NCBI GenBank assembly: GCA_964436545.1
Contig: CAYTCJ010000003.1
Span: forward strand, 3,168 to 67,167
Origin: an uncultured Candidatus Saccharibacteria bacterium
Lineage (GTDB): Bacteria > Patescibacteriota > Doudnabacteria > UBA920
Direction of reading: 5' to 3'
Length of the DNA: 64,000 bases
Shown: positions 960 to 64,000 of the stretch, piece after piece
Position numbering within the stretch: position 1 is the stretch's first letter
Layout: every line of letters starts with the position of its first letter
Translations under genes and position numbers: made by a program
Notes under the pieces: model-generated
Database searches by the model: none
Told to the model about the DNA's origin: nothing
What the model saw: only the letters and a program-made list of their open reading frames with translations

Positions 960-1281
960 TTTTTGTTCTTTCCAGTTTGGAATGGCTCGTCTCCCTACGG
1001 GAGACAGGCAAGTTTTGGTAGCAAAATTGTTCTGATATTGCAAGTAAAGCAATTTTATTATTGTCATGCTGAATTTATTTCAGCATCCAGTTGACATATA
1101 GATTCTGAAACCCACCAGAGGTTGGCAGGCAAGTTCAGAATGACAGAGGAAATTTATTTTCTTTATATTGCTATACAATGATAGGTGTTTTGCTCCCCAA
1201 GCTTGCCTTGCCTTGGTTCTATCCCATGGACTTTAAGGCAGGGTCATTCCTCCAAATCTCAAAAGGGGGAGTGAATAGAAA

Positions 1282-5652: not shown

Positions 5653-7023
5653 ATGAGGATAATTGCCGACCTCCAAATTCATAGTAAATATTCTCGTGCT
5701 TGTTCCCAAGACCTTAATCCACAAAATATTGGCTTGTGGGCGCAAAAAAAAGGTATTCAGGTTATTGGCACCGGGGATTTTACGCATCCCAAATGGCTTT
5801 TGGAGTTAAAGGAGAATTTGGTAGAAGCAAAACCGGGGTTGTATCGATTGCGATCTAATTCGGGTCATTCAAATACTATTCGTGGATTCGGGTCGGCTCA
5901 TTTTATGCTTACTGCGGAAGTTTCGAGTATTTACAAACAAGGCGACAAAGTAAGGCGGGTGCACAATATGATTCTGGCGCCGAACTTTCAGGCAGTTGAT
6001 AAAATTATTGCCGGCTTAGAAAAGCGAGGAGCTAATTTAAAAAGTGACGGCCGACCGATTATGGGCATTAAGTGTCCGGATTTGGTAAAGCTGGTTAAAG
6101 AGGCCTCCTTAGAAGCGGAAATTATTCCGGCGCATGCTTGGACTCCGCACTTTGGCGTGTTTGGTTCCTTGTCGGGTTTTAATAGCATAGAGGAAGCGTT
6201 TGGTGAGGAGGCAAAACACATTTTTGCCATTGAAACCGGCCTGTCAGCTGACCCAAAAATGAATTGGCAAATTTCATCGCTCGACCAGTATGCTTTGGTG
6301 TCTAACAGCGATGCGCATAGTTTAAGAAAACTGGGGCGGGAGGCCAATGTGTTTGAAATAGAGGAGAAAAAATTATCTTATGCGGAAATAATTCGCGTGA
6401 TTCGGAATAAAGATCCCAAAGAATTTCTTTACACTTTGGAATTTTTTCCCGAGGAAGGCAAATACCATTTAGATGGCCATGCCGATTGCAAATTTTCTTG
6501 TGAACCTTTGAAAACCCAAAAATTAAAAGGGGTTTGTCCGGTGTGTGGAAAAAAATTATTGGTGGGTGTGTTAAGTCGGGTAGAGGCTTTGGCCGATAGA
6601 GCCTATGGGTTTATGCCGAAACGGGCTGTGCCTTTTAAAAATGTAATTCCGTTAGAAGAAATTATTGCCGATGTGCTGGGTGTGGGGGTGGCATCTAAAC
6701 GAGTGGTGGAGATGTATGAGCGAATGGTGAACTCCTCCCGACCTCCTCTTTCGAAAAGAGGAGGGGTATTGCAGTCACCCCCTCTTTCTTTAAAGAGGGG
6801 GGAGGGGGAGTTGTGTGATGAGTTTTCCATTCTTCTCGATTTAACCGAAGCGCAAATTACCGCCATCTCGAATCCAGCCATAGCCCAAGCCATCATCCGC
6901 GTTCGCGAAGGTAAGGTTAAACTAGAAGGTGGGTATGATGGCGTGTTTGGTAAAATTGAAATTTTTAGCCAAGCAGAAAGGGAAAAATTGTTTTTAAAAC
7001 CTAAACAAGTAACTTTATTTTAA
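5653..7023 (+). CDS. PHP-domain nuclease, endonuclease Q-like (TIGR00375-like) with C4 zinc finger
   Basis: The N-terminal IADLQIHSKYS motif is PHP-type. CEPL...CPVCGKK forms a zinc ribbon. The overall length and layout resemble EndoQ. The gene carries an in-frame palindromic insert (6733-6812). Confidence 0.6.
   Translation: MRIIADLQIHSKYSRACSQDLNPQNIGLWAQKKGIQVIGTGDFTHPKWLLELKENLVEAKPGLYRLRSNSGHSNTIRGFGSAHFMLTAEVSSIYKQGDKVRRVHNMILAPNFQAVDKIIAGLEKRGANLKSDGRPIMGIKCPDLVKLVKEASLEAEIIPAHAWTPHFGVFGSLSGFNSIEEAFGEEAKHIFAIETGLSADPKMNWQISSLDQYALVSNSDAHSLRKLGREANVFEIEEKKLSYAEIIRVIRNKDPKEFLYTLEFFPEEGKYHLDGHADCKFSCEPLKTQKLKGVCPVCGKKLLVGVLSRVEALADRAYGFMPKRAVPFKNVIPLEEIIADVLGVGVASKRVVEMYERMVNSSRPPLSKRGGVLQSPPLSLKRGEGELCDEFSILLDLTEAQITAISNPAIAQAIIRVREGKVKLEGGYDGVFGKIEIFSQAEREKLFLKPKQVTLF
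6733..6812. repeat. Tandem pair of GC-rich hairpins inserted in frame in the EndoQ-like gene
   Basis: Two perfect hairpins, cctcctctttcgaaaagaggagg and cccctctttctttaaagagggg(ggaggggg). They encode SSRPPLSKRGGVLQSPPLSLKRGEGEL. Confidence 0.65.
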
Positions 7024-7779: not shown

Positions 7780-9057
7780 TTAGTTTATTAGTAATTCCTC
7801 AATCTTCATTAACCGGTTATATTTACACACCCGCTCGCCTCGGGTGGGGCCGACTTTAATCCACTCACTACCCATGGCCACGGCAAGGTCAACTAAGAAA
7901 GTGTCATTGGTTTCGCCCCCGCCTCGGTGGGAGGGAATAGTGATGAAATTATATTTTTTAGCTAAAAGGCAAGCCTCGACGGTTTCACTCACCGTGCCGG
8001 CTTGGTTAAGTTTAATTAAAATCGCATTGGCGCATTTTTCATCTATGGCTTTTTGCCAAAGTTTTGCATTAGTTACGGTTAAGTCATCGGCCACAATTTT
8101 TACTGTGCCCGCTTGGCTCATTAATTTTGGCCAATTGCTCCAGTCAAATTCCGAGAGACCGTCTTCCAAAGCTATAATCGGATATTTACGAAACCAATCC
8201 GCATACATAGCAATTATTTCGTCGGAAGTTAGCAGTTTTTTATCCACTTTTAAACTATATTTATTATCACTCAGGAATTCCGAAGCCGCAGCGTCTATGT
8301 AAATGCCCGCATCTGTGATAGCTTGATAGCCGGCTTGTTCTATGGCCTTAGTAAGAATTTGTAAAGGCAGTTCATTGCTGGTAATTCCGGCCGGCGCAAA
8401 AGCGCCTTCGTTGCCGACGTTGGTGTTAAACCCTTGTTGTTTTAAAAGGGTTTTGGTGGCTTGATAAATTTCTTCCATCATTTGCACGTTGGCCTTAGCA
8501 GATTGGTTTTTATTTACCGCTAAAATATACTCTTGTAAATCGGTAGAATTATCGGCATGTTTACCGCCTTCAATAAACACGGCAAGGGGACGAGGTAAGT
8601 TGTAAGTTGTAAGTTGCCTGTCTGCGGACAAGGCAGGTAAGTTGTAAGTATTAGCTAGATATTCATATAATTCCAAGTTTGCATCAGTGGCAGCAGCGCG
8701 GGCAATGGCCATGGAAACCCCCAAAATGGCATTGGCACCCAAATTACTTTTGTTTTCCGTGCCGTCTGCGTCAATCATAAGCCTATCAATTTCCTGTTGA
8801 GCTTTTGCCTCTTTGCCAATTAGTAGAGGTGCGATTTTTGTATTAACATTTGCCGTGGCCTGAAGCATACCTTTGCCGTTATAGCGTTTCACTTCACTAT
8901 CGAGCAAAACAAAAGCTTCTTTACTGCCTGCCGACTCGCCATAAGACACGCTGGCTGTGCCGACACAATTATTTTCTAAGACAACGTCCACCTCTAAAGA
9001 GGGCGCGCCACCGCTAGCTAAGATTTCTCTTGCAAAAATGTGTTTGATTTTGGTCAT
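7780..9057 (-). CDS. eno: Enolase (phosphopyruvate hydratase)
   Basis: The SHRGGGETNDTF(LV)DLAVA signature and the overall 425-aa alignment pattern match Eno. The gene contains an in-frame repeat insert (8595-8650). Confidence 0.9.
   Translation of the reverse strand: MTKIKHIFAREILASGGAPSLEVDVVLENNCVGTASVSYGESAGSKEAFVLLDSEVKRYNGKGMLQATANVNTKIAPLLIGKEAKAQQEIDRLMIDADGTENKSNLGANAILGVSMAIARAAATDANLELYEYLANTYNLPALSADRQLTTYNLPRPLAVFIEGGKHADNSTDLQEYILAVNKNQSAKANVQMMEEIYQATKTLLKQQGFNTNVGNEGAFAPAGITSNELPLQILTKAIEQAGYQAITDAGIYIDAAASEFLSDNKYSLKVDKKLLTSDEIIAMYADWFRKYPIIALEDGLSEFDWSNWPKLMSQAGTVKIVADDLTVTNAKLWQKAIDEKCANAILIKLNQAGTVSETVEACLLAKKYNFITIPSHRGGGETNDTFLVDLAVAMGSEWIKVGPTRGERVCKYNRLMKIEELLIN
8595..8650. 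repeat. Palindromic unit flanked by GTAAGTTGTAAGT repeats, inserted in frame in eno
   Basis: Plus strand reads gtaagttgtaagttgtaagttg-cctgtctgcggacaaggcagg-taagttgtaagt. On the coding strand it encodes TYNLPALSADRQLTTYNLP, which has a duplicated TYNLP flank. This sits where other enolases have a short loop before the GGxHADN motif. Confidence 0.65.
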
Positions 9058-11229: not shown

Positions 11230-11233
11230 CCAG

Positions 11234-11966
11234 ATGGGCATCTTCAAGGGGATTCCCCTTGAAGATGCCCATCGAGGGAATATGAATCATCGAGATTATA
11301 AACAATTTGCCCCTTTAACCTCCCATCATATTTATAATCGGGGAAATGGAAAGCGAGATATTTTTTTGGATGCGGATGATTATAATTTTTTTCTATATCG
11401 CCTGAAAGAAAATCTTTTTCCCACCTTGAAGATGCCCATCGAGGGGAGTGTATTTAATAATTCGCATACTCCATATAAACGCAAAACCTTGCCTAGCGGA
11501 GCATTTTCTTTATTGGCTTATTGTTTGATGCCAAATCATTTTCATTTACTAATCCAACAGAATTCGTTATTGCCTGTGAGTAAGTTATTAGCCAAAGTTT
11601 GTACAAGTTATAGTAAATATTTTAACAAAAAATATGATAATATTGGTGGAGTCTTTCAAGATCAATTTAAAGCAGTTTTAGTTGTTAGTGATACTCAACT
11701 GCTTTGGCTTTCAGCGTATATTCATCAAAACCCGGTAATAGCAGGAATTATAAAAAAGATAGAGGATTATCAATGGTCTAGTTATTTAGATTTGGTGGGT
11801 TTAAGGCAAGGGAGTCTTTGTGATAAAAGTTTTTTTGTGAAAATGGTTGGTTCTAAAAATTCTTATAAAAAATTTGTTGATGAAAGTTTTGAAAAAATTA
11901 AACAACGGAAGGACATTAAGAATTTACTAATAGAATAGTACCCCCCTTGAAGATGCCCATCAAGGG
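11234..11966 (+). mobile_element. RAYT (REP-associated tyrosine transposase) unit flanked by REP hairpins
   Basis: REP-like hairpins cccTTGAagatgcccatCgAggg occur as an inverted pair at 11234-11273, again at 11425-11447 (inside the gene) and again at 11941-11966. The enclosed CDS has HuH and Tyr motifs. Confidence 0.7.
11283..11938 (+). CDS. IS200/IS605-like Y1 HuH transposase (REP-associated tyrosine transposase)
   Basis: HFHLLI is the HuH motif, and YIHQNPV supplies the downstream catalytic Tyr. The track ORF start at 11234 is encoded by the REP palindrome, so the ATG at 11283 is the more likely start. Confidence 0.7.
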
Positions 11967-23930: not shown

Positions 23931-23942
23931 GAAAATAAAAAA

Positions 23943-25466: not shown

Positions 25467-25485
25467 GGTTTAATCTTATTAAACA

Positions 25486-25514: not shown

Positions 25515-25537
25515 TGCACGGGTTTTGTAAATAGGTG

Positions 25538-27500: not shown

Positions 27501-27565
27501 GTTCCGCCAGCTGGCGGATCAGCGGTACCTGCCTCTACCTGTCGGCAGACAGGTGCCGGCAGGCA
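27501..27565. repeat. Cluster of GC-rich palindromic units (ccgccagctggcgg; cctgtcggcagacagg; gccggcaggcagg)
   Basis: Perfect short palindromes lie in an otherwise AT-rich intergenic region. The same units recur at 61356-61373, 55731-55750, 45491-45512 and 8617-8635. Confidence 0.65.
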
Positions 27566-27595: not shown

Positions 27596-27874
27596 ATGTA
27601 TTGTGTTTATGCAATCATTAGCCAAATAAAAAATAGAATTTATGTAGGACTGTCCCACGATCCCTTTAAAAGGCTTACCGAACATAATTTAGGAGAATGT
27701 AAATCCACTAAAGGTTATACACCTTGGAAATTGTTTTTTATCGAAACTGACCATCAATCTTTAAATTCTGCAAGAAATAGTGAAAAGAGATTGAAGAGCG
27801 GTTTTGGTAAAGAATTTTTAAAAACTTTACCGAAAGAAAAAATTTCATATTATTCGGGAGTAGCTCAGCGGTAG
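27596..27874 (+). CDS. GIY-YIG nuclease family protein (small, standalone)
   Basis: MYCVYAII...RIYVGLSHDPFKRLTEHN matches the GIY-YIG core. The 3' end overlaps the tRNA-Asn 5' end, and the track start at 27419 lies in repeat DNA. Confidence 0.6.
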   Translation: MYCVYAIISQIKNRIYVGLSHDPFKRLTEHNLGECKSTKGYTPWKLFFIETDHQSLNSARNSEKRLKSGFGKEFLKTLPKEKISYYSGVAQR

Positions 27875-27928
27875 AGCAATCGGCTGTTAACCGATGGGTC
27901 CTGGGTTCGAATCCCAGCTCCCGAGCCA
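27854..27928 (+). tRNA. tRNA-Asn (anticodon GUU)
   Basis: Acceptor stem tcgggag/ctcccga, D-arm gctcagcggtagagc, anticodon loop ct-GTT-aa, T-arm ctgggttcgaatcccag, discriminator G and an encoded CCA. Confidence 0.85.
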
Positions 27929-27967
27929 CGCTAAGCGTGGCTGTACCCCCGCTTAGCGGGGGAGCCA
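27914..27967. repeat. 54-bp direct repeat copy 1 (tRNA-Asn 3' end + two downstream hairpins); attL-like
   Basis: ccagctcccgagccacgctaagcgtggctgtacccccgcttagcgggggagcca is identical over 54/54 nt to 32357-32410. Confidence 0.8.
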
Positions 27968-28038
27968 CAGATACGTTTAGTGCAGTTAAGAAAACCTTGC
28001 TAGTTGCGAGGTTTTTCTTTTAGGTTTAAAATTTAATC

Positions 28039-28308
28039 ATGTTTTATGTATACATCTTGCATAGTCAAAAAGATGGTTTGTTATATACTGGCTACACACC
28101 TGATCTCAAAAATCGGATAAAGTCCCACACAGCAGGTTATGTTATAGCAACTAAACATCGCCGTCCTTTAAAGCTTATTCATTATGAGGCTTTTTTGTTC
28201 GAGTCAGATGCCAAACGGCGTGAACTGTATCTTAAAGGTGGTAATGGTAAAAAAGAGTTAGAACAAATTTTAGAAGATTATTTTAAAAGCAATCCTTGGA
28301 ATAAATGA
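28039..28308 (+). CDS. GIY-YIG nuclease family protein (second paralog)
   Basis: MFYVYILHSQKDGLLYTGYTPDLKNRIKSH matches the GIY-YIG core (YVYIL...YTGYT...R...H). Confidence 0.65.
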   Translation: MFYVYILHSQKDGLLYTGYTPDLKNRIKSHTAGYVIATKHRRPLKLIHYEAFLFESDAKRRELYLKGGNGKKELEQILEDYFKSNPWNK

Positions 28309-28375
28309 TAGGTTAGCTTTATTAAATATAAAAGCTTGTCAAAAATTCAGACTTGCCTCTTATTTTTTTATATAT

Positions 28376-28909
28376 ATGTACAAAAAGTTTATTTTTTGCC
28401 GAGATATTAAAAATAAGAAATATAAGGTTAAAATTGACCAATTAAATTTTCGTCCGGCAGTATACGGACTGATTTTTAAAGGTAATAAAATATTATTAAG
28501 TAGACAAGGAGACGGTTATGATTTTCCAGGTGGTGGTGTAGACAAGGGAGAGAAACTTGAAGATGCATTAAAACGTGAGGTTTGGGAAGAAACAGGAGTA
28601 AAAATAACGTCTGGAGATTTAGTTTATGTTACCCAAGATTTTTTTATTAGCATCCAGAGTAGAAAAAGAATTCATTCCATTCTTGTATATTATCTATGCA
28701 AGAAACCAAGTGGTAAAATTTCGACCAAGCATTTTGATGGTTATGAAAAGAGCTATTTAAAAGCAGCAGAGTGGATTGATTTAAAAGATGTAAAAAAACT
28801 GCATTTCTACAATGCAGTTAATAGTCCAAAACTTATCAAGCAAGGTTATGAACTTTATAAAAGGCTTTATGAATCAACAATACAAGTTTCAATTAGCAGG
28901 CAACAATAG
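28376..28909 (+). CDS. NUDIX hydrolase
   Basis: Nudix box GGGVDKGEKLEDALKREVWEETGV (GX5EX7REUXEEXGU). Confidence 0.8.
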   Translation: MYKKFIFCRDIKNKKYKVKIDQLNFRPAVYGLIFKGNKILLSRQGDGYDFPGGGVDKGEKLEDALKREVWEETGVKITSGDLVYVTQDFFISIQSRKRIHSILVYYLCKKPSGKISTKHFDGYEKSYLKAAEWIDLKDVKKLHFYNAVNSPKLIKQGYELYKRLYESTIQVSISRQQ

Positions 28910-28921
28910 AAAATAAATTAT

Positions 28922-29785
28922 ATGCCAGAAAGGCCAACATCAGAAGAATTAAATAGATCTATTGAAGAAGGAATTATGACATTCCAAGAGTATGCAAAAA
29001 AGGAGCACGATGTTCCTTATGTTTTTGAATTGAAGGAAGGGAGTAAATCACTTACCTATTACGGGGCTGGTCACTCGCATAATCCTGAAGATCCTATGTT
29101 TGTAGATATTGAACAAAGATTTAAAGCGCCACATCCTCAAGTAGTTATAGTTGAAGGAGTAAATCAATTAGTAGAACAAAAAGAACGATTCAGAAGTACC
29201 TTGAGAGGGGTAACTCGTGAAGGAGTAATAAAAAAAATGGGTGAATCTGCTTTCGCTCTAAAATTAGCAATGGATTCCAATATAGAAGTAGAATCACCGG
29301 AACCGCAATTAAGCGAAGAAATACAATATTTAATACAAACAGGTTTCGAGAAAGAAGATATTTTTGCTTTTTATCTTTATCGTTCGGCAAATCAATATCA
29401 AAGAACTCCCCAGACCCCAAGTATAGAAGAATATTTACAGCCAGACGCAGAGGAGTTTAAAGCCGCAACAAATTGGGAAAATTTTGATTATTCAATTGAA
29501 AATCTAAAAACCATCGGTCATAGGTTATGGGGAAATAGGAGTGCTTTAGATAGTGCAGAATTTTCAGAAGAACGTATTGACCCTGTCCCTTGGGATGAAA
29601 AGAAAGATGAACAAACAGTAGTAAATCAAATAGCGGCTCAGTCCAGCTTTTTTCGTGATAGATTTATGGTAAAACGATTACAAAAAATACTAAAAGAAAA
29701 AGATAGTGTGCTTGTAGTTTTTGGTGTAAGTCATGCATATATGCAAGAACCAGCTTTAAGAAAAATATTTGAAAGTTTTAAATAA
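28922..29785 (+). CDS. TraB/GumN/Tiki-family-like protein (tentative)
   Basis: An N-terminal YYGAGHSH and a C-terminal VVFGVSHA resemble the paired GxxH motifs of the Tiki/TraB/PrgY family. Similarity is judged by eye only. Confidence 0.35.
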   Translation: MPERPTSEELNRSIEEGIMTFQEYAKKEHDVPYVFELKEGSKSLTYYGAGHSHNPEDPMFVDIEQRFKAPHPQVVIVEGVNQLVEQKERFRSTLRGVTREGVIKKMGESAFALKLAMDSNIEVESPEPQLSEEIQYLIQTGFEKEDIFAFYLYRSANQYQRTPQTPSIEEYLQPDAEEFKAATNWENFDYSIENLKTIGHRLWGNRSALDSAEFSEERIDPVPWDEKKDEQTVVNQIAAQSSFFRDRFMVKRLQKILKEKDSVLVVFGVSHAYMQEPALRKIFESFK

Positions 29786-29850
29786 GAAAGTATGTGCTCA
29801 TTAGACTGCCTAAATAAGGTCCCAACCATTTCTACTGTGTTGAACCAAAC

Positions 29851-29880
29851 AAAAACCACTATTTAGATAGTGGTTTTTGT
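29851..29880. terminator. Rho-independent terminator (aaaaaccactat-ttag-atagtggttttt)
   Basis: A perfect 12-bp stem followed by a T-run. Confidence 0.75.
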
Positions 29881-30115
29881 TTGGGGAAAGTGGTAATATA
29901 TTAAAAATAAGCAGGTTATATTTTTGTCAAAAATTCAGACTTGACCCTATTCTAGACAGTGGGTTTATCTTGGCATGATAAATTGGCACCGACTAAAGGC
30001 ATATTTGGTTTTAATGATTGGGGTAGTTTGCTATTTGGGTATGGTATTTTGTTCTTTATCGTGGGAAAAGTTGTAGCATGGTTTCAACGCCCTTAACTGT
30101 AAATTTGTTAGCGTT

Positions 30116-30144
30116 AAAAGCCTGGACGAAACCAGGCTTTTTTG
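30116..30144. terminator. Rho-independent terminator (aaagcctgg-acgaaa-ccaggctttttt) just upstream of the MOSC gene
   Basis: A 7-bp GC-rich stem followed by a T-run. Confidence 0.7.
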
Positions 30145-30160
30145 ATAGACTAAAGGGTCT

Positions 30161-31069
30161 TTGAATCAAATCGAAGAAGAAAGGAGCAGGAGGGTGAAAG
30201 TATCAGAACTCTACGTTTACCCAATTAAATCGTGCCGTGGAATTGGGCTTTCGGAAGCTCGAGTCAACGCGCGCGGAATTGAACACGACCGGGAGTATAT
30301 GGTCATAGACGCCGATACGGGCATGTTCGTAGCCCAGCGGCAGGACAACGGTCTCGGCATCGAAATCAAGAGCATGTGCCAGGTGAAGACGAAACTCCAA
30401 CCCATGAACTTCATTCACATCTGGGCACCGGAAATGAGGGGCGTGCACATTAACCCCAAACTGGCCGGTAGCGAGATGCGGGTTCAGGTCTGGAAGAACG
30501 GCGGCATCCTGGCTTATGACATGGGCGACTTTTTGGCCGATTGGTTTACCAAGTTCCTAAGTCGCGAACGGCCTGGCAAGTATCGTCTGGTGCGTATGAC
30601 CGACGACTTCATCCGGCGGGCCAAGATCGGTGACGCTCAAGTGGGTTTCGCCGACGCTTACCCGTTCATGGGGATCGGCTGCAGCGCACTCGGGGAACTC
30701 AACCGACGGTTGGCGGTCAAACGCCATCCCGAACTTCCCATGAACCGCTTCCGGCCGAACATCGTGTTTGGCGACGCTGCTCCGCACTCCGAAGACCACA
30801 TGAAGGTCATCAAAATCGGCGACGAGGGCGGCGTAATCCTCGACGGTATGACGCTATGCGAACGCTGCCCCTTGCCCTGCACGGATCAGGAAATCGCTGT
30901 GCGGACCAAGGAACCCAGCGCCACCTGGGCGGAATATCGTCGCGGTCGGCACATCGGTATCACCGATCCGACAAAACAGGGAGCTGTCTTCTTCGGGCGT
31001 AACTTCAACCACCGCGGACCCGGTTACATCAAGGTCGGCGACTACGTGGAGATTCTGGAATCGGACTAG
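30161..31069 (+). CDS. MOSC-domain protein (MOSC N-terminal beta-barrel + MOSC; YcbX/mARC-like), high-GC
   Basis: VSELYVYPIKSCRG is the MOSC_N signature. The more likely start is the GTG at 30194, preceded by aaggagcaggagg. GC is about 60% against a background under 40%. Confidence 0.75.
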   Translation: MNQIEEERSRRVKVSELYVYPIKSCRGIGLSEARVNARGIEHDREYMVIDADTGMFVAQRQDNGLGIEIKSMCQVKTKLQPMNFIHIWAPEMRGVHINPKLAGSEMRVQVWKNGGILAYDMGDFLADWFTKFLSRERPGKYRLVRMTDDFIRRAKIGDAQVGFADAYPFMGIGCSALGELNRRLAVKRHPELPMNRFRPNIVFGDAAPHSEDHMKVIKIGDEGGVILDGMTLCERCPLPCTDQEIAVRTKEPSATWAEYRRGRHIGITDPTKQGAVFFGRNFNHRGPGYIKVGDYVEILESD

Positions 31070-31170
31070 CACTCGAGGCGTGGGCCGTTGACCTTAACCG
31101 GCAACGATTCACGCTTCTCATCTTAGCAAATCAAGGATTGGTTTATTGAGATGAGAAAAGAAGGAGGAGT

Positions 31171-31437
31171 ATGTTAGCAATCGCACGCTTAATGGTGCAT
31201 ATGCACCACCACATTTGGGCGATTCTTGTGGTGTTTCTTGTAGGAGTCGGAGCTTTTGTTCTCGGCTCTTACATCCAAAACGCAATTGCCCGCAACGTGG
31301 TTTTCGGTATCGCAATCATCGCTGTGGCGTTTGTCATGGCGACGGGCGCTTCTATCGGCCCTATGGACGACTGGCAGCACCAGCACGGAAGCTGCCTGCT
31401 CGAAACAATCGACCAAATGCAGAGAGGTAAAAAGTGA
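31171..31437 (+). CDS. Small hydrophobic membrane protein, His-rich N-terminus, high-GC
   Basis: 88 aa with two predicted TM helices. It is translationally coupled (ATGA-type overlap) to the downstream amidase. Coding status is moderately likely. Confidence 0.45.
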   Translation: MLAIARLMVHMHHHIWAILVVFLVGVGAFVLGSYIQNAIARNVVFGIAIIAVAFVMATGASIGPMDDWQHQHGSCLLETIDQMQRGKK

Positions 31438-32117
31438 AGCTACGCAATCTGTTGTTCGTGCTCATGGTTCTGTCTGTCGCTTTCGGGTGCGCCAATGCGC
31501 AGTCGCCGCAAAAGCAGCCCGAATGGCAGGCCAACTGGTTCCCCATTAACTGGGAGGCGGAGAAGATTGAGAAACAAATCGTCACCGATACAATCTTCAT
31601 CCACCATACGGCATGGGAACCGAACGCCACATGGCAGCGGCTGTCCGAGGAGCAGAAAAAACGGCTCTACGATGCCCGCTACGCCATCGCCGACAAAGAC
31701 CCGTTCGTGCAAGGCGAGCCGTCGCACTCGGGTCACTATCGCTTAGTGGACGGCAAATTGGTGGAAGTGTTTTACGCCTACCACTGGATAGTCCGGCAAG
31801 ACGGTAAGGTCGAACGGCTTCTGGATGACCGCGAAGTCGGCTGGCACGCCGGCAACTGGGCGGAGAACATGCGGTCAGTGGGTATTGTTTTCGATGGCGA
31901 CTACAGCAAAAAGCCGCCGCCGAAGAAAGCGCTCAAGGCAGCAGCCAAGCTCATCCAGCAATACGTCCAGCAGTATCCGACAATTACCCGCCTCAAGGCA
32001 CACCAGGACGTGCGCAAGACCGAGTGCCCGGGTGCATGGTATCATGCGGCAGACAAGCACGGGCAGACCGGCCGGGACCGACTGCTCAAATACGCAAAGC
32101 TAATATTGTCCGAGTAA
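31434..32117 (+). CDS. N-acetylmuramoyl-L-alanine amidase, Amidase_2/PGRP (T7-lysozyme-like) family, secreted; high-GC
   Basis: Signal peptide. IFIHHTAWEP, GWHAGNWAENMRSVGIVFDGDY and HQDVRKTECPG match zinc amidase_2 catalytic motifs. Confidence 0.75.
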   Translation: MKLRNLLFVLMVLSVAFGCANAQSPQKQPEWQANWFPINWEAEKIEKQIVTDTIFIHHTAWEPNATWQRLSEEQKKRLYDARYAIADKDPFVQGEPSHSGHYRLVDGKLVEVFYAYHWIVRQDGKVERLLDDREVGWHAGNWAENMRSVGIVFDGDYSKKPPPKKALKAAAKLIQQYVQQYPTITRLKAHQDVRKTECPGAWYHAADKHGQTGRDRLLKYAKLILSE

Positions 32118-32137
32118 GTGTTCGGACTAACTGTGGG

Positions 32138-32173
32138 GCGCACGTTCAAGCTGGACGTGCGCTTCTTCTTTTT
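32138..32173. terminator. Rho-independent terminator (gcgcacg-ttcaagctgga-cgtgcgc-ttcttcttttt)
   Basis: A GC-rich 7-bp stem plus a T-rich tail directly after the amidase stop. Confidence 0.7.
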
Positions 32174-32356
32174 CCATATAAGCCTTTCTAATACGCTGCA
32201 CATATCGGAGCCATAAGAAATTCATTCCATTTTGGGATGGATTTTTTATTTCTAGATACTGGTATGAGAAGTTTATCCGCCTCTGGCGGAAATCCCGCCT
32301 ACAATAATTTGAATTGCTTTAGCAATTCATAGTGGAAGTGCCATAAAACTTTATGG

Positions 32357-32410
32357 CCAGCTCCCGAGCCACGCTAAGCGTGGCTGTACCCCCGCTTAGC
32401 GGGGGAGCCA
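32357..32410. repeat. 54-bp direct repeat copy 2 (partial tRNA-Asn 3' end + hairpins); attR-like
   Basis: Identical to 27914-27967, but no full tRNA precedes it. It is preceded by the palindrome gccataaaactttatggc. Confidence 0.8.
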
Positions 32411-32456
32411 AGAGAAAACATCCAATAGGCAAGGTTAGGGTGTTTTTTGCTATAAT

Positions 32457-38183: not shown

Positions 38184-39149
38184 TTATTTGTTTGAGACTT
38201 CGGCAGGGGGAGTTTGGGAGTTTTGGTAAGACAGGGCGGTAATGGCACCTAGCAGAATCAGCCCGCCTACAATTTGCATTATCGCCAGTTGACCCCCTGG
38301 AATAAATATCCAATTAATAATTACTGCAGAAAAGGGGAAAGCTAATTCGCACAAAGTGGCAATGCTCGCTTTGGTATGCTGTAAGCCTTTGTAGTAAATA
38401 AATAAAGAAACAAAGCCCGCAATTGTGGCAATAATTAAAACAAATAGCCAATCTTTAGTGGTGGCGTGAGCAATTTCGCCCCAATGGCCTTGGTATGTTT
38501 GGAAGGCCAATAAAAATCCGCCTGCGGTTAAAAACCGAATAGCAGTTAAGGCCTGAAAAGAGAGTTGATTTAAAAGTTTTCTGCCAAACACAGTCGAGCC
38601 TGCCCACAGCCCGGCTGCCAGTAAAGCTAATAAGACGCCTTTGAGGTTAGGGTTAAAGCTTTCGCCCGGGTAAAGTTGAGGTGTAAAGTTAGGGAAACTT
38701 AGCAAATACGCGCCCAAGATCGCAAAGCCAGACCAGAGCCAAAATTTGGCTGAAAGTTGTTCTTTTAAAAAGATAACGGCTAACAGAATGGCAATAATGG
38801 GCTGAATTTTTTGGAGGAGAATGGCTACCGAAGGGTTAACATAGTGAAAGCTTTGGGTAAAGGCTATGGTAGCCAGTGCACTGCCTCCTATACCAATAAA
38901 GACAACATACCCCCACTCTAGGCGGGTTAAAGTTTTTAGTTCGGACAGGTATTTATTTAAAAACCATAACACTAAAACCGCAATCACCAAATGCTCCATA
39001 AGCACAATAGTGCCGGAAGATAGATCGCCGGTTAAATATTTTCTAAAGGGCGCATCTATAGTCCAAAGCAGAGCAGAGAAAAAAACTAACCAAGGCGCAA
39101 AACGAGATGAAAGCATAGGGGAAATAGAGTTATGAATTATGTCCCGCAA
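38184..39149 (-). CDS. DMT-superfamily transporter (EamA-like, 10 TM)
   Basis: Two EamA-like halves with about 10 hydrophobic helices. Confidence 0.7.
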   Translation of the reverse strand: MRDIIHNSISPMLSSRFAPWLVFFSALLWTIDAPFRKYLTGDLSSGTIVLMEHLVIAVLVLWFLNKYLSELKTLTRLEWGYVVFIGIGGSALATIAFTQSFHYVNPSVAILLQKIQPIIAILLAVIFLKEQLSAKFWLWSGFAILGAYLLSFPNFTPQLYPGESFNPNLKGVLLALLAAGLWAGSTVFGRKLLNQLSFQALTAIRFLTAGGFLLAFQTYQGHWGEIAHATTKDWLFVLIIATIAGFVSLFIYYKGLQHTKASIATLCELAFPFSAVIINWIFIPGGQLAIMQIVGGLILLGAITALSYQNSQTPPAEVSNK

Positions 39150-39180
39150 AGCGGGATCCGCCTTTGGCGGAAATTATGAA
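39141..39180. repeat. Palindromic element: gtcccgcaaagcgggat + ccgcctttggcgg + aaattatgaa
   Basis: Two perfect hairpins. A longer version with an extra middle unit lies at 55711-55770. Confidence 0.7.
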
Positions 39181-43471: not shown

Positions 43472-43790
43472 AGAGAAGAGGGGCAGGTTGGTAAGTTGTA
43501 AGTAAGTTGTAAGAAGAGATATTAGAGAAGCAGGGTAAGTTGCCTGCCGGCAGGTAAGTAAAGTATACCAGCTCATTGAGACTCAGTAAACAAGCGAGAG
43601 AAGATAAGTTAAATTGCGATGCTAATATGCGAATACATGCTAATAATGCGAATAAATCCATATAGCCATTGGCTAATAGGCAGGTAAGGAGAGAGGGATA
43701 GAGATTAGAGAAGAGGGATTAGAGATTAGAGAAGAGAGAAGTAGGGAGTAGATAGGGAAAAAGAAAAAAGTAAAAAAATTAACAAGGTGC
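43472..43790. repeat. Low-complexity/short tandem repeat region containing a gtaagttg-cctgccggcagg-taagt unit
   Basis: It holds GTAAGTTGTAAGT, AGAGATTAGAGAAG and GAGAAGAG repeats. The 43533-43557 unit is of the same kind as the eno in-frame insert. Confidence 0.6.
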
Positions 43791-45050: not shown

Positions 45051-45254
45051 CGCATTAGTAAGTTTACTAAAGGCGATCTTCGTCATTTTGACAGTTTACC
45101 AATTAAGTGACATATGTCACTTAATTGGTAATGGTAAAAATTATTTTTAGCTGTGGTATAATACAGTTATGCTAAATATCCAAGAAATAAAAAAAAATTT
45201 ACCCCGTTAGAGAAATGAAATTTCGTTTTCTTATTCGGGTGAAAGGTTAGTTAA

Positions 45255-47081
45255 ATGCTTAATGATAATTTATCAGCATTACATTCTCTAATGGGGTTTG
45301 AGGGGGAAGTAGACAACAGTGAAGATACTTTAATCAAATACAGTCATGATGCCAGCATTTTTGAAGTGAGGCCCATGGGTGTGGTGCATCCGAAAAATAG
45401 TGAAGATGTAAAGAATGTGGTGAAGTGGGTGGTAAGCCAAAGGCAAGATAGTTTAACTTTGAATACAGATGACTCAGAGCGTCATCCTGAACCTGCCTTG
45501 TCGTCAGGCAGGCTTGTTTCAGGATCCCATATAAATGGATTCCGAAATAAATTCGGAATGACAAATGGAGATAAAGCTTCTGTAAATAAAGGGGGGGAGT
45601 TATCTATTACAGCTCGGAGTGCCGGCACAGATATGTCGGGCGGGCCACTTAATACTGGAATAATTGCCGACTTTACCACGCATTTTAATAAAATTTTAAA
45701 CTTTGGGCCGAATTTTGTAGAAGTAGAGCCGGGGGTATATTACCGCGACTTTGAAGTAGAAACTTTAAAACGCGGACTACTTTTGCCATGTTATACGGCT
45801 TCCAAAATGCTGAATACCGTGGGCGGAATGGTGGGCAACAATAGCGCGGGTGAAAAAACTTTGGCGTATGGGCAAACTAAAGATTTTGTAGAAGAATTAA
45901 GCGTGGTATTGAGTGATGGAAATGAATATCAATTTAGTGAATTGGAAAGTAGAGAATTAGAGAGTAAACTAAAACTCCCGAATTTTGAAGGTGATATTTA
46001 CCGAAAAATCTATCAGCTCATTAAAGATAATCGCGATTTAATTCAAAACGCCAAACCCAAAACCAGTAAAAATTCCGCCGGATATTTACTGTGGGAAGTA
46101 TGGGATGGTATAAAATTTAATTTAGCCAAATTAATTGTAGGCAGTCAGGGGACATTGGGCCTTGTTACGAAAATTCGGTTTCGGCTGGTAGAGCCTAAGC
46201 CTAAGTCTGCTTTGCTGGTGATGTTTTTAAAAGACTTGAATAATTTGGGAGAAATTGTGGCAGATGTGGTAGAACATAAGCCGGAAAGTTTTGAAAGTTA
46301 TGATGATAAAACTTTAAAACTGGCCATAAAGTTTTTGCCCGCCATGGTAAAGAAGATGTCCAAAACCGCTGGGTCGGCTTTTGGTGGCATTCTAAACATG
46401 TTAAGTTTGGGTTGGCAGTTTATGCCCGAAGCGGTTATGACTTTAACTGGCGGAATGCCTAAGCTGGTATTAATTTGTGAGTTTACCGGCACGAGCCAAG
46501 AAGCAGTAAATGAAAAAGCCAGTTTACTCCAGCGGGAAGTGGAAGGGAAATTTCATATCCAAACTCGGATTTGTCAAAATAAACAAGAAGTGGAAAAATA
46601 TTGGACCATAAGGCGGGAGTCGTTTTCTCTTTTACGGGAGCGCATTAAAGACCGGCACACCGCCCCCTTCATAGATGACATTGCGGTCCTGCCCAAAGAT
46701 ATGCCAGCATTTTTACCGCGGTTAAATAAAATTTTGGAAAAATATCAGGACAAAATTATTTACACCATTGCCGGACATGCGGGGAATGGCAATTTTCACA
46801 TCATTCCCTTAATGAATTTGGCGGACGAAAACCAGCGCGCGATAATTCCTCAACTTTCCGAAGAAGTTTATAGTTTGGTTTTGGAATTTCATGGGACAAT
46901 TACGGCAGAGCATAACGACGGACTGATTCGCACCCCTTTTTTACAAAAAATGTATGGGAAAGAGGTAATAGGTTTGTTTGAAGCAGTAAAAAATATTTTT
47001 GATCCGCACAATATTTTTAACCCCGGCAAAAAAGTTCACGGGGATTTGGGGTATGCGATGGAGCATATTAAAAGAAGTTAG
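45255..47081 (+). CDS. FAD-linked oxidase (GlcD / D-lactate dehydrogenase-like, PCMH-type FAD-binding)
   Basis: ARSAGTDMSGGPLN and an N-terminal FAD-binding-4 pattern. The C-terminal domain ends NIFNPGK. Carries an in-frame ~80-nt palindromic insert (see 45480-45562). Confidence 0.75.
   Translation: MLNDNLSALHSLMGFEGEVDNSEDTLIKYSHDASIFEVRPMGVVHPKNSEDVKNVVKWVVSQRQDSLTLNTDDSERHPEPALSSGRLVSGSHINGFRNKFGMTNGDKASVNKGGELSITARSAGTDMSGGPLNTGIIADFTTHFNKILNFGPNFVEVEPGVYYRDFEVETLKRGLLLPCYTASKMLNTVGGMVGNNSAGEKTLAYGQTKDFVEELSVVLSDGNEYQFSELESRELESKLKLPNFEGDIYRKIYQLIKDNRDLIQNAKPKTSKNSAGYLLWEVWDGIKFNLAKLIVGSQGTLGLVTKIRFRLVEPKPKSALLVMFLKDLNNLGEIVADVVEHKPESFESYDDKTLKLAIKFLPAMVKKMSKTAGSAFGGILNMLSLGWQFMPEAVMTLTGGMPKLVLICEFTGTSQEAVNEKASLLQREVEGKFHIQTRICQNKQEVEKYWTIRRESFSLLRERIKDRHTAPFIDDIAVLPKDMPAFLPRLNKILEKYQDKIIYTIAGHAGNGNFHIIPLMNLADENQRAIIPQLSEEVYSLVLEFHGTITAEHNDGLIRTPFLQKMYGKEVIGLFEAVKNIFDPHNIFNPGKKVHGDLGYAMEHIKRS
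45480..45562. repeat. Compound palindromic element inserted in frame in the FAD-oxidase gene
   Basis: atcctgaa-cctgccttgtcgtcaggcagg-cttgtttcaggat followed by attccgaaataaattcggaat-gaca. It encodes ERHPEPALSSGRLVSGSHINGFRNKFGMTNG between the conserved FAD-binding segments. Confidence 0.65.
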
Positions 47082-47121
47082 CAATCAGTAGTCAGTAAAT
47101 CAGTAATCAGTAGACAGCGAA

Positions 47122-55699: not shown

Positions 55700-55710
55700 G
55701 CAGGAAGCAT

Positions 55711-55770
55711 GTCCCGCAAAGCGGGATCCCTGCCTTGTCGGCAGACAGGCGCCTTTGGCGGAAATTATGA
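55711..55770. repeat. Three-unit palindromic element: gtcccgcaaagcgggat + cctgccttgtcggcagacagg + gcctttggcggaaattatgaa
   Basis: A longer form of the 39141-39180 element. Its middle unit equals the eno and FAD-oxidase insert cores. AGAGAATAG tandem repeats follow it. Confidence 0.7.
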
Positions 55771-55800
55771 ATAGAGAATAGAGAATAGAGAATAAAGCAA

Positions 55801-61339: not shown

Positions 61340-61355
61340 CATGGATCTACCGATA

Positions 61356-61373
61356 ATCCGCCAGCTGGCGGAT
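61356..61373. repeat. Palindromic unit atccgccagctggcggat
   Basis: Identical to the unit at 27503-27520. Confidence 0.7.
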
Positions 61374-61427
61374 TGATGCGGAATCTATAATTTATTTTCA
61401 ATTAGATTTTTATTTAAGGTAAGTCTG

Positions 61428-61516
61428 GATCCTGAAACCCCAATAGCAGAACCTTTGGTTCGCTACGGGGTAAACAAGTTTAGGATGACAATCAACAAGT
61501 TCAGGATCATTAAGAA
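61428..61516. repeat. Inverted-repeat element (ggatcctgaaac ... gttcaggatca)
   Basis: Terminal inverted repeats lie about 65 nt apart, using the same ATCCTGAA/TTCAGGAT arms as the FAD-oxidase insert. Confidence 0.5.
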
Positions 61517-61591
61517 ACAAATTTACAGTTCCTTGGTAAATATTAAAATATGACAAAAATTAGTTTTAGTTACTAGATCCGTGTTAAATAT

Positions 61592-64000
61592 ATGGACAAA
61601 GTAAAAATCAAAAGAACCAAAAGAAATAAAAAGAAATTATCTTTCAAAGAAAAGGCGCTGGCGGGCGTGGGTTTAACATCTACACTTGTGGGCGGTGTGG
61701 CGGGAGTGAGCCGAGGGATGCAAGAACAGAGAATGGTAAGCACCATAAAAGACATGCTTACTTCGGGCAAGAAAAAAAGCAATACCCAAAAAGCCAAAGA
61801 TGCCATTGCCAAAGTTTTTGGCATTAAAGAAGCCAAAGCCAGTTCGGCGACCATTAATTTTCGGAATTTAACTTCCGGTAACAACAGCCAAGTGCGGGTG
61901 GGTGAGAGTGTGCAAATTAACATTACCGGTCCTGCCGGTTCGGCAGTGTTTTATGATGGCGGAAAAAATGGAAGTCAGGAAAGAATTTATTTAACTAACG
62001 ACCAAGGCGAGCAAATGTATGTGGGTGAAGATGGCACCTTAAACCAAACCATAACCATGACGGCAGACTGGGTGGGTGATTGGAGTTTAGATTATAAATT
62101 ATTTACCCCGAGTGAAGAAGAAGTCTTTGCGGGTAATGTAAGTTTTAGCGTGATATCTACAGCTACCCAAAACCTCGGGAGGAATTCTGCCAACCCAACC
62201 AGAGTGGTGGCTTCGGAAAGTTCGTTTGATTTAAAAGTGGGGGAGAGTAAAACCGCTCGCGTGTGGGTAGATTACGATGATAATTCTCAAGATAGCGAAT
62301 TTAACGTAGAAACTTCTAACCCGAATGTGGTGAATTTTGTTTTAAATAACGACGGCAGTTTTAGTATGCAGGCCATTGGTCCGGGACAAGCGAGTATTAT
62401 AGTGAATGCCAAAAAAGATCCCAGTAAAGGGGTGCGGATACCGGTGAGAGTAAGCGAGGCAACGGCGACGGTATCCACTTTTAGAGTTACGCAAAATAAT
62501 CGAGAAACTAGCGGAGTGAATGTTAACGTGAATGGTAGAACTACTATTACCGCTTTGGCTACGTTGTCTGATGGGAGTTTAAGTCCGGCAGTGGAAATAA
62601 AAGTTTTAGATAGTAACAATGCCAATTATAGCCAGCACGTGAGTGCCTCGGTGGATAATAACGGGCTAATAACTATTCAAGCTGGCGACCCTTACCAAAA
62701 CGAAGATCCATATAATCAGATTTCAGATTATATGGCGACTTTAGTTTTGCACCCGATTTTAGCCGGCAGTGATACAAGCTTAGATAAAACTGTATCGGTG
62801 TTTGTGGAAAGAGCAAATCAAAATTTACCTACTCAACAAACCGAAACCAAAGAAATGCCTGCTTATATCTACCAAATGGGCGCGCAAACCAGATTAGAAC
62901 AATTAACCAAAGCCCAGCAAGATGAATTGGTAAATTGGTTTTTGGCCAACTCCGATGTTTTACCCGCCAGTTTTATTCCGGGAAGTTTTTTTGCAGACGC
63001 AGTTTTTCAAGTGGGTAAAAATCCGCCCACGCATAACGACGGAAATGCAGTAAGAGGCATTTTATGGGGTTATGAATATCAAAATGGACAATGGCGTCAT
63101 ATTTTTGAATTGCCTGGAAAGAATGCGATAAATATTGACCAAAGTTATTTTGCTAATAGGTGGTATAATTCTGATTTTGCAAGAGGATCAGCAATGGCTG
63201 CAGCTGGTATTACCTCTAGTTTAGGAGCTACTATTGCTTTAACGATGGGCTCGGTAAGTATAACTTACGCGGCAGGCACCGCAGTTCCTATAGTCGCTGA
63301 GGTAGTTTTAAATGGGGTTACTTATGCATTAGGACAAGCTTTAGGAACCGCAACAATGAGCAGTACAATGCTTTCTTTTCAGGCAACTATGACCGCTTTA
63401 ATGGCTCAACCGGTTTTTGTGGTTGCTATTGTGGCTGCAGTTATTTTAGGTAGTATAACTTTAATAAGTTGGTTAGATAATAAAAGAAAGATGGCACATT
63501 ACAGACAAGATGATAGTCGTTTAGCCAACGAAGCTTTTGTTAAAATAAATAAAATCGCGGATATTTATAATTCCAATGCTTTAGGCGACATAGATCTTGA
63601 GGGTGAGTATAAAGATCGAATTATAGAATTGATGAATAATATTTTTAATCAGACTTCGGCGTATTTTAAGTTGCAAAATTCCTCTGTGCAGAGTCAGCGT
63701 CAATACTTAAATTCAGCCATCAGTAGTATTAATCAGACTTATTATCAAAGAATGTCCGGCTATGAGCAAGGTTTGCAAAATATAGAGGTCTTTGAAGATA
63801 AAAACGGACACCGAGAAGCTTATGTAAATGAAAATTTTGGCATGGTGGTAGCATATAAAGATGGTTATCAGCATTCCCAAACCGGTAGGTTTGTTGGTCA
63901 ACGAACCGTAGAGGCGATAAGAAATAAAAGTAATACGATTAAAATAGATAGAATTACGTTTGACCCGGGTTGGGTGTATGGCAATCCGGCACAAGGTAAT
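61592..64000 (+). CDS. Large membrane/surface protein with Big_2-like Ig domains and multi-helix hydrophobic region (3' partial, runs off window)
   Basis: Manual translation from the ATG at 61592 finds no stop through 64000 (over 800 codons). A basic N-terminus and a TM segment are followed by Big_2-like repeats (…ASESSFDLKVGESKTARVWV…QAIGPGQASIIVNA…) and an Ala/Gly-rich TM cluster. The supplied ORF track lists no ORF for this stretch, presumably because no stop falls inside the window. Confidence 0.65.
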   Translation, partial: MDKVKIKRTKRNKKKLSFKEKALAGVGLTSTLVGGVAGVSRGMQEQRMVSTIKDMLTSGKKKSNTQKAKDAIAKVFGIKEAKASSATINFRNLTSGNNSQVRVGESVQINITGPAGSAVFYDGGKNGSQERIYLTNDQGEQMYVGEDGTLNQTITMTADWVGDWSLDYKLFTPSEEEVFAGNVSFSVISTATQNLGRNSANPTRVVASESSFDLKVGESKTARVWVDYDDNSQDSEFNVETSNPNVVNFVLNNDGSFSMQAIGPGQASIIVNAKKDPSKGVRIPVRVSEATATVSTFRVTQNNRETSGVNVNVNGRTTITALATLSDGSLSPAVEIKVLDSNNANYSQHVSASVDNNGLITIQAGDPYQNEDPYNQISDYMATLVLHPILAGSDTSLDKTVSVFVERANQNLPTQQTETKEMPAYIYQMGAQTRLEQLTKAQQDELVNWFLANSDVLPASFIPGSFFADAVFQVGKNPPTHNDGNAVRGILWGYEYQNGQWRHIFELPGKNAINIDQSYFANRWYNSDFARGSAMAAAGITSSLGATIALTMGSVSITYAAGTAVPIVAEVVLNGVTYALGQALGTATMSSTMLSFQATMTALMAQPVFVVAIVAAVILGSITLISWLDNKRKMAHYRQDDSRLANEAFVKINKIADIYNSNALGDIDLEGEYKDRIIELMNNIFNQTSAYFKLQNSSVQSQRQYLNSAISSINQTYYQRMSGYEQGLQNIEVFEDKNGHREAYVNENFGMVVAYKDGYQHSQTGRFVGQRTVEAIRNKSNTIKIDRITFDPGWVYGNPAQGN

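Follow-up and report, generated by a model that had tools for sequence, protein, structure and literature searches.

We analyzed a 64,000-nt stretch of contig CAYTCJ010000003.1 from an uncultured bacterium of the Patescibacteria (the window, in what follows). In this window the gene for an FAD-linked oxidase contains a lineage-specific insert that leaves the reading frame open. The insert was built stepwise from miniature hairpins that resemble repetitive extragenic palindromic (REP) sequences, and each of the hairpin families, which we call HP-A, HP-B and HP-C, has other copies in the same 64 kb (Table 1). HP-B in particular behaves as a discrete unit, wholly present or wholly absent, with ends defined by its structure and no target duplication. 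We are highly confident that the insert is an in-frame stack of dispersed REP-like hairpin elements. On balance, we also favor a fuller account in which the hairpins were moved as single-stranded DNA by an enzyme of the REP-associated tyrosine transposase (RAYT) type and the encoded peptide is a tolerated passenger. The narrower proposition that such an enzyme mobilized these particular families is finely balanced, and we lean slightly against it.

The host protein carries both domains expected of the family, FAD_binding_4 (residues 116-224) and FAD-oxidase_C (residues 318-592). Its top NCBIfam matches, YdiJ and GlcD, are each under the cutoff, and the nearest structures in the PDB are glycolate oxidase and LctD. 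Homologs are widespread in the Patescibacteria, for which Candidate Phyla Radiation (CPR) is another name; all of those found belong to this group, Doudnabacteria among them. Relative to insert-free orthologs, the protein has 49 extra residues between a helix (residues 49-68, ending ...EDVKNVVKWVVSQ) and a strand (residues 118-121, LSITARSAG), at a position where most homologs have nothing. We examined 90 orthologs drawn from genome and metagenome contigs. Because 75 of them have fewer than five extra residues in this loop (the other 15 have five or more), the stretch is an insertion. An earlier note on this DNA had proposed as much, and the homolog alignment agrees with it in showing no conserved native segment at the site. 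The FAD_binding_4 match begins only at residue 116, which corresponds to profile position 25 and lies after the insert; the insert therefore splits the N-terminal part of the domain. In an AlphaFold model built on the same alignment (predicted TM-score, pTM, of 0.83), the rest of the protein is confident, and residues 67-114 have a predicted local distance difference test (pLDDT) score below 50 and no secondary structure. The insert is thus predicted to be a disordered loop.

The earlier note had described two nested or adjacent palindromes at 45480-45562, translated with the frame preserved. All of the inverted repeats are there and are perfect, the open reading frame (ORF) at 45255-47081 is uninterrupted, and the translation that was given, ...ERHPEPALSSGRLVSGSHINGFRNKFGMTNG..., is correct. 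The note treated them as one compound element of about 83 nt, a description that can be refined. The insert is longer, 147 nt, and consists of three perfect 21-nt hairpin modules (8+5+8, 7+7+7 and 8+5+8 nt for arm, loop and arm) plus a 19-nt hairpin. HP-B follows directly on the left arm of HP-A, ahead of the HP-A loop, and has a 7-nt loop of its own; in the window, the 8-nt arms of HP-A stand 26 nt apart. HP-C starts fourteen nt beyond HP-A and is translated in frame within ...GFRNKFGM.... When positions 45462-45565 are folded as single-stranded DNA, they adopt exactly these nested and adjacent hairpins at -21.5 kcal/mol. Shuffled versions of the segment reach -8.9 ± 2.3 kcal/mol (z = -5.5), and none of 200 folded as well.

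Close relatives provide the same gene without one of these layers. Among 100 fetched loci (labeled L001 to L100), four from separate samples (L001-L004) are syntenic with the window over 42.2-56.8 kb at 79-94% DNA identity. Their oxidase insert equals that of the window minus exactly CCTGCCTTGTCGTCAGGCAGG, which is HP-B, and they carry HP-A as an intact 21-nt hairpin. No other intragenic indel exceeds 10 nt over the approximately 14 kb of the syntenic alignment. Three other oxidase alleles in the protein collection, each of 601 aa, also lack HP-B.

Outside the oxidase, the window holds two copies of HP-B with at most three mismatches (8617-8637 and 55729-55749), compared with 0.00 in shuffled sequence. 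The first lies in the enolase gene, in the same sense and frame as the oxidase copy (PALSADR vs PALSSGR). All 12 aligned enolase homologs lack exactly these seven amino acids, including one that is 95% identical, and at the DNA level L095 reads gcttacaactta^caacttacaac where the window carries the 21-mer. At least this copy was thus gained in the window lineage. The second copy belongs to a composite intergenic repeat, and a paralogous repeat without HP-B provides the third empty site. HP-B is also found in relatives at L100 3784, L100 4571 and L001 6793, one of these being in a composite that the window lacks; a relative carries two HP-B-filled composites. A more diverged HP-B-like hairpin is present in a GIY-YIG ORF, and shuffled sequences gave 0.0 matches at its five-mismatch threshold. 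In total, the window contains three copies of HP-B plus the diverged one, two of HP-A and two of the HP-C type.

All three filled and empty sites differ by exactly 21 nt, bounded by the stem foot. We saw no target-site duplication in any of the three comparisons, and only a single junction C is ambiguous. The sites are of three types, namely a hairpin loop, a heptamer tandem tract and the gap between two hairpins, all of which are likely to be unpaired or slippage-prone DNA. None of the six frames of the HP-B consensus holds a stop codon, a property not shared by HP-A, HP-C, the REP-A hairpin described below, or the oxidase copy of HP-B. Since 21 nt is seven codons and the consensus is free of stops, a copy that lands in a tolerant loop adds seven residues and the gene stays open.

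HP-A and HP-C have relatives of their own. The earlier note held that the arms ATCCTGAA and TTCAGGAT also bound a noncoding element at 61428-61516. They do recur there, around 58 nt that are nested directly after the left arm and comprise an ACCCC...GGGGT hairpin and a partial duplicate of the right half of HP-A. Removing these loop nucleotides leaves ATCCTGAAACAAGTTCAGGAT, the exact reverse complement of the HP-A 21-mer of L001, and this match makes the link convincing. Local alignment of the whole insert with the 61428 element returns only the 12-mer GGATCCTGAAAC, with z of about 3, which is weak alone. The HP-A arm 8-mer occurs five times in the window where 1.65 would be expected, a count reached in 3 of 100 shuffles. 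An intergenic hairpin at 1066-1086 shares the layout of HP-A and HP-C. Its reverse complement matches HP-C, the loop being identical and the stem carrying two compensated changes; from HP-A it is one compensated change in the stem and two in the loop away. When the three distinct sequences are aligned as an eight-pair helix, all cells pair and two pairs are changed on both sides. From only three sequences, this compensation is suggestive, not strong.

The second HP-A copy is held by a 250-nt spacer (61340-61588) that replaces a 224-aa gene of a relative (L100 11027-11701). On the plus strand it is followed by a large He_PIG-domain gene that starts near 61590 and continues past the window edge, which makes the minus-strand ORF at 61573-61923 probably spurious.

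Hairpins inside genes extend beyond these families. In other lineages, the same oxidase loop contains different perfect hairpins with stems of 7-10 bp (ccccccctttTGAaaaggggggg, tcccctctttTCTaaagagggga, cccctccttGAAaaggagggg and ccgctaggcAAGgcctagcgg). Same-length control segments of the same genes match such stems in 0-10% of draws, and in 0-0.5% for the five oxidase-loop inserts with 9-10-bp stems. A TIGR00375-family gene of the window (5653-7023) carries two G-rich hairpins in frame. A relative at the 82% level has one hairpin at this site, and one at the 95% level has a heptamer tandem array instead; in L095, the array in this loop reads gaattaa/gaagtaa.... The CCCCTCTTT hairpin family has seven members across the fetched loci, both intragenic and intergenic. 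Overall, perfect intragenic hairpins in the window (stem of at least 7, loop of 3-9) number 40 vs 25.5 ± 4.5 after codon shuffling, and those with a stem of at least 8 number 14 vs 6.3 ± 2.7. Hairpins of 23-24 nt within genes are always paired with extra bases that restore the frame, implying that they are translated.

This survey bears on the idea that replication errors of the template-switch or fold-back kind created the palindromes locally and de novo, making perfect inverted repeats out of adjacent sequence, with in-frame survivors kept in a tolerant loop. It is favored by the perfect stems, by the different hairpins per lineage in one oxidase loop and by an intragenic enrichment that is only modest, and some small hairpins, such as that at 45468-45486, have no other copy. 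For HP-B the idea is already contradicted by near-identical copies at unrelated loci, and HP-A and the HP-C relative at 1066-1086 also recur. Moreover, the indel in each filled and empty pair is a whole hairpin, arms and loop together, instead of one arm copied from the other. We consider a de novo origin improbable.

The window encodes a candidate enzyme for moving the hairpins. One ORF matches the Pfam family Y1_Tnp above the cutoff (E = 1.6e-9), and among NCBIfam models it scores highest against "REP-associated tyrosine transposase" (E = 1.4e-14, 54 bits, under the equivalog cutoff of 80). It contains an HUH motif (NHFHLLI) and a tyrosine motif (YIHQNP). Its homologs are widespread in Patescibacteria, some of them named RayT by JGI, and the gene itself is recorded in two assemblies. 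The oxidase insert lies 34 kb away. We found no other transposase in the 51 of 56 predicted window genes that were scanned.

The RAYT gene has its own hairpin, REP-A (CCCTTGAAGATGCCCATCRAGGG), and the layout of 5', internal and 3' hairpins around the gene is repeated in L098 and L099; the 100 fetched loci contained no further RAYT gene. Loop AGATGCCCA is unchanged and the stems co-vary (CCCTTGA in the window REP-A vs CCCAGA in the 3' copy of L099), and the hairpins of L098 differ in sequence. One of the hairpins in these relatives is exactly 21 nt. All three genes have an in-frame hairpin in the same variable loop, between RLKENLFP and HTPY (11423-11445; L098 10001-10681; L099 320-982). In the window its sequence is close to that of the flanking hairpins. 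The likeness is partial in L099 and unclear in L098, where it is a perfect 46-nt hairpin with a 21-bp stem. The internal hairpin may be a self-recognition or autoregulatory site, or merely a favored landing place. The RAYT locus (11230-12140) sits between the genes for pyruvate kinase and pyruvate phosphate dikinase. In the 82%-level relative L096 (7192-7735), a PIN toxin-antitoxin pair takes its place, which marks a variable slot in otherwise conserved glycolytic synteny.

We propose that an HUH/Y1 transposase of the RAYT type would copy or move the units as single-stranded hairpin DNA. Insertion into exposed single-stranded loops would produce the nesting of hairpins, and activity on single-stranded hairpins would account for the missing target duplication. 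Of the units that arrive in coding DNA, those that keep the frame, bring no stop and land in a tolerant loop would be the only ones to persist, leaving a peptide that is probably a tolerated passenger and not a functional motif. The lack of target-site duplication fits HUH/Y1 chemistry as established for the IS200/IS605 family, which is hairpin-dependent and single-strand-specific, lacks terminal inverted repeats and leaves no target-site duplication.

Several observations weigh against this account. No copy of HP-A, HP-B or HP-C lies next to the RAYT gene, and REP-A differs from them in sequence and has no dispersed copy within the 64 kb; the pairing of enzyme and element is therefore unproven. 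Cleavage in Y1 systems normally takes place at sites external to the hairpin, and the mobile unit here is the bare hairpin. Insertion of IS200/IS605-type elements takes place 3' of a fixed tetra- or pentanucleotide, and each such element has two subterminal hairpins that differ, whereas HP-B is a single bare hairpin whose three targets share only the junction C. The left flanks of HP-B end in CCTGAA, AACTTA and GGGATC (or in GAAC, TTAC and ATCC if the C is shifted) and have no 4-mer in common (n = 3). REP-type hairpins, the most common bacterial repeats, are defined as extragenic, but the diverged HP-B copy and two of the three close ones lie in frame inside ORFs. Classical REPs also carry a conserved GTAG or CGTC tag at one end (PMC3733652), and neither is found at the stem foot of the three HP-B copies. 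HP-B may be the most recent layer of the insert, yet its precise loss is equally parsimonious at the oxidase, as it is at the composite repeat, and the direction of change is polarized for enolase only. The oxidase allele with HP-B, of 608 aa, is on record from a single assembly. Finally, the repeat census covered the 64-kb window and fragments of relatives.

Some of these points would suit hairpins that are mobile or copyable without a RAYT, by a structure-specific route of the kind proposed for the small dispersed repeats of Nostoc, or by templated repair or ectopic conversion in which a nick in an unpaired loop receives a hairpin copied from a donor locus. We saw no cognate RAYT for any of the three families, and REP-A is of different sequence and has no dispersed copy in the window. 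The stem foot is the exact limit of the unit, with a junction ambiguity of 1 nt, the targets have no conserved motif, and the proximity of copies to heptamer tandem arrays suggests slippage-prone DNA. Identical 21-nt boundaries at three unrelated sites, on the other hand, argue for a defined end-recognizing activity over copying driven by microhomology, and the window does encode a RAYT whose hairpins belong to the same size class. A route independent of RAYT seems to us unlikely, if worth serious consideration.

We also asked what the inserted peptide contributes. The inserts of the window and L001 differ by six substitutions, and the rest of the protein is 95-96% identical. None of the six falls in a stem, which has an estimated chance of about 0.08 and is not significant. 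All six alter the encoded residue (D>N, T>A, R>C, I>A, G>R). This pattern fits a passenger peptide with conserved or homogenized stems. The unchanged stems could instead signal an insert kept for a function of its own, either as an adaptive protein loop or as an intragenic RNA or DNA hairpin with a regulatory role in translation, mRNA stability or protein binding, and the RAYT ORF keeps its internal REP copy in all three loci. However, the same 21-mer is also intergenic, the oxidase loop is predicted to be disordered, every substitution in the insert is nonsynonymous, and most orthologs do without the insert. A scan of the whole window at Rfam gathering thresholds found two tRNAs only and no family on the insert. 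We regard a dedicated function as very improbable.

We further considered whether the insert exists in the mature protein at all. An assembly artefact would be in keeping with an HP-B allele of the oxidase known from one assembly only, and intron- or intein-like sequence might be removed before the protein matures. Against an artefact, HP-A and HP-C were recovered in four independent samples, and the enolase protein with HP-B is found in two assemblies, one from NCBI and one from Logan. We rejected an intron or intein given the absence of Rfam matches beyond the two tRNAs, units of 21 nt that are far below the size of group I or II introns or inteins, and a peptide predicted to be disordered. 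The frame-restoring combinations of 23-24-nt hairpins would also be expected only if these sequences are translated. We find either form of this explanation hardly credible.

In mechanism, the closest known system is that of REPs, REP doublets (REPINs) and RAYTs in E. coli and Pseudomonas (Nunvar 2010; Bertels & Rainey 2011, PMC3116915, PMC3337134). Both there and here, the repeats are short (about 20 nt), palindromic, dispersed and themselves noncoding, a genome has several hairpin families, and a single HUH/Y1 gene has hairpins of its own on both sides, an inverted doublet (here of REP-A) among them. REPs are extragenic by name and by observation (PMC3337134), whereas the window has in-frame copies in enolase, the FAD oxidase, the GIY-YIG ORF and the RAYT gene itself. 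The window units also differ in being perfect-stemmed, exactly 21 nt long and nested in each other's loops, and in having a CPR host.

In consequence, the Rickettsia palindromic elements (RPEs) are closest. They are palindromic, lie in frame in unrelated housekeeping genes, are compatible with the fold and add a peptide (Ogata et al. 2000; reviewed in PMC10969869), much as the window palindromes lie in frame in the FAD oxidase, enolase and RAYT genes. RPE units are about 100-150 bp and encode a conserved peptide tens of residues long, which makes them 5-7x longer than the 21 nt and 7 aa seen here, where 147 nt is reached only by stacking and nesting. The host phylum is unrelated, and RPEs have no known transposase, whereas here a candidate is encoded nearby.

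In size and behavior, the closest are the small dispersed repeats SDR1-8 of Nostoc and Anabaena. As summarized in PMC3116915 and PMC5861425, these are dispersed hairpin repeats of 21-27 nt whose mobility was inferred from presence and absence at sites that match otherwise, and in those summaries they are reported only in Nostocaceae. The 21-nt hairpins of the window are likewise dispersed, show precise presence and absence at three filled and empty pairs, and are associated with other small repeats. SDRs reportedly include nesting and heptamer tandem repeats as well. The sequences appear to be unrelated, and in-frame insertion into core enzymes is prominent here.

The absence of a target-site duplication at HP-B is a feature shared with the miniature elements of the IS200/IS605 family (palindrome-associated transposable elements, PATEs). 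The composite repeat (39139 and 55709) is similar to a bacterial interspersed mosaic element (BIME) in being a mosaic of small hairpins of variable composition that is present or absent between relatives; it differs in that it is much smaller, is joined with heptamer arrays and has one module, HP-B, that also occurs alone inside genes. Literature searches found no RAYT or REPIN and no palindromic in-frame insertions described for Patescibacteria.

Table 1. Hairpin elements, their host genes and the RAYT locus, in window coordinates
Feature	Position	Strand	Description	Basis or context
Intergenic 21-nt hairpin ATGCTGAA-TTTAT-TTCAGCAT	1066..1086	+	8+5+8 layout as in HP-A and HP-C	
Two G-rich hairpins, cctcctctttCGAaaagaggagg and ccccctctttCTTTaaagaggggg	6742..6801	+	10-bp stems; in frame in TIGR00375-family gene (PPLSKRGG...PPLSLKRGEGE)	
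HP-B copy CCTGCCTTGTCCGCAGACAGG	8617..8637	-	in frame in enolase, PALSADR	inside native heptamer tract (CTTACAA)x4
REP-A inverted doublet	11233..11273	+	41-nt perfect hairpin, 19-bp stem	just 5' of RAYT start
RAYT-type HUH/Y1 transposase gene	11282..11938	+	218 aa from ATG 11282 (ORF 11234-11938)	Pfam, NCBIfam, motifs
REP-A copy inside RAYT ORF	11423..11445	+	in frame, ...PTLKMPIEG...	loop variable across family
REP-A copy cccttgaAGATGCCCAtcaaggg	11944..11966	+	23 nt; 6 nt past RAYT stop	
Diverged HP-B-like hairpin acctgtcGGCAgacaggt	27537..27554	+	in frame in GIY-YIG ORF, YLSADRC	5 mismatches to HP-B consensus
Paralogous composite repeat without HP-B (empty site)	39139..39180	+		alignment A4: both sides match 55709 copy around exact 21-nt gap
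FAD-linked oxidase gene (GlcD/YdiJ-like), host gene	45255..47081	+	608 aa	Pfam, NCBIfam, orthologs
Lineage-specific in-frame insert	45441..45587	+	147 nt / 49 aa, R63-N111	alignment A1, ortholog set, AlphaFold
Small hairpin gatgacTCAGAGCgtcatc	45468..45486	+	19 nt, 6-bp stem	overlaps HP-A left arm by 3 nt; conserved in L001
HP-A ATCCTGAA-CTTGT-TTCAGGAT	45484..45525	+	21 nt; arms 45484-91, 45518-25	split by HP-B
HP-B CCTGCCT-TGTCGTC-AGGCAGG (CCTGCCTTGTCGTCAGGCAGG)	45492..45512	+	21 nt; arms 45492-98, 45506-12	translated PALSSGR
HP-C ATTCCGAA-ATAAA-TTCGGAAT	45539..45559	+	21 nt; arms 45539-46, 45552-59	identical in L001
Composite intergenic repeat (filled)	55709..55771	+	hairpin CCCGCaaaGCGGG, atc, HP-B (55729-55749), cGCCtttGGCg	then GAATAGA heptamer array
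Second HP-A copy, reverse orientation, intergenic	61429..61507	+	arms 61429-36, 61500-07; 58 nt nested in loop	

The oxidase gene has other repeats and variable sites. A perfect 36-nt palindrome with a 16-bp stem (ttaccaattaagtgacATATgtcacttaattggtaa, 45096-45131) lies in the spacer, at about 125 nt upstream from the oxidase start codon, and could be an operator or the terminator of the upstream gene. Directly behind the stop codon, a heptamer array begins (47083-47112). Within the protein, a second low-confidence segment (MSKTAGSAFGGILNM, 46365-46390, residues ~372-378) coincides with a variable-length site in alignment A1 (columns 511-530), and the window DNA has no hairpin there. Other insertion sites of the family (columns 220-253, 425-452 and 554-563) are also mostly without hairpins, so not every insertion in the oxidase has a hairpin origin. 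We considered whether the insert as a whole sits in the loop of a G-rich hairpin of its nearest relatives, L008 and L088. The MAFFT alignment does not support this placement, and pairwise alignments disagree, with the insert falling in the hairpin loop when compared with L008 and 5' of a degenerate remnant when compared with L088; it is an ambiguous possibility.

The composite repeat (CCCGCaaaGCGGG hairpin, optional HP-B, GCCtttGGC, GGAAATTATGAA and heptamers) is itself present or absent between relatives. In L100 (3717-3828 and 4540-4600), a composite-bearing spacer of 112 nt separates two genes that in the window are separated by 25 nt. The repeat is found upstream of both msrB and an unknown gene of 494 aa. 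Between genes, heptanucleotide tandem arrays are frequent, at 19002-19030, 43699-43741, 47083-47112 and 55769-55794, and they also occur in coding DNA, as in enolase, where (CTTACAA)x4 at 8595-8616 is kept in relatives as (CCTACAA)x4. They recall the short tandemly repeated repetitive (STRR) heptamers of cyanobacteria.

Longer perfect hairpins, with 14-22-bp stems and A/T-rich feet, are found at gene ends (14941-14980, 29845-29884, 23938-23971 and 25481-25515, and in relatives at L095 1067-1108 and L096 11267-11314) and probably act as terminators. Hairpins downstream of enolase in relatives (…gacttctgggAAATcccagaagtc…) loosely resemble the in-frame hairpin of the L098 RAYT gene, a likeness that suggests that REPIN-like doublets serve as terminators. 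A 54-nt exact direct repeat occurs at 27915-27968, from the 3' end of tRNA-Asn (27854-27928), and 4.4 kb downstream at 32358-32411. The two copies bracket NUDIX, unknown, MOSC and amidase genes, and the GIY-YIG ORF abuts tRNA-Asn. The pair looks like the attL and attR sites of an integrated island, and we detected no integrase between them (27915-32411).

The movement of the smallest REP-type hairpins has been largely inferred. With three clean filled and empty sites in a host with a tiny genome, the window provides a concrete system in which to test how small mobile DNA can be. Copies of 21 nt survive here in frame inside essential enzymes, and hairpin insertion offers ultra-small bacteria a route to longer protein loops other than point mutation. 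Such in-frame inserts can break domain models, as with the FAD_binding_4 match that starts only after the insert, and can inflate the apparent novelty of proteins in metagenomes. More tentatively, and as a possibility that we find rather doubtful, this CPR lineage may harbor active selfish DNA that is compatible with coding, in which an HUH/Y1 enzyme pastes bare 21-nt hairpins into any transiently single-stranded loop, including those of earlier copies. If so, protein surface loops would grow in seven-residue steps, and the accretion of hairpins would be a general source of the idiosyncratic insertions that CPR proteins show. In every RAYT examined, the REP copy lying in frame would then be a self-recognition or autoregulatory site.

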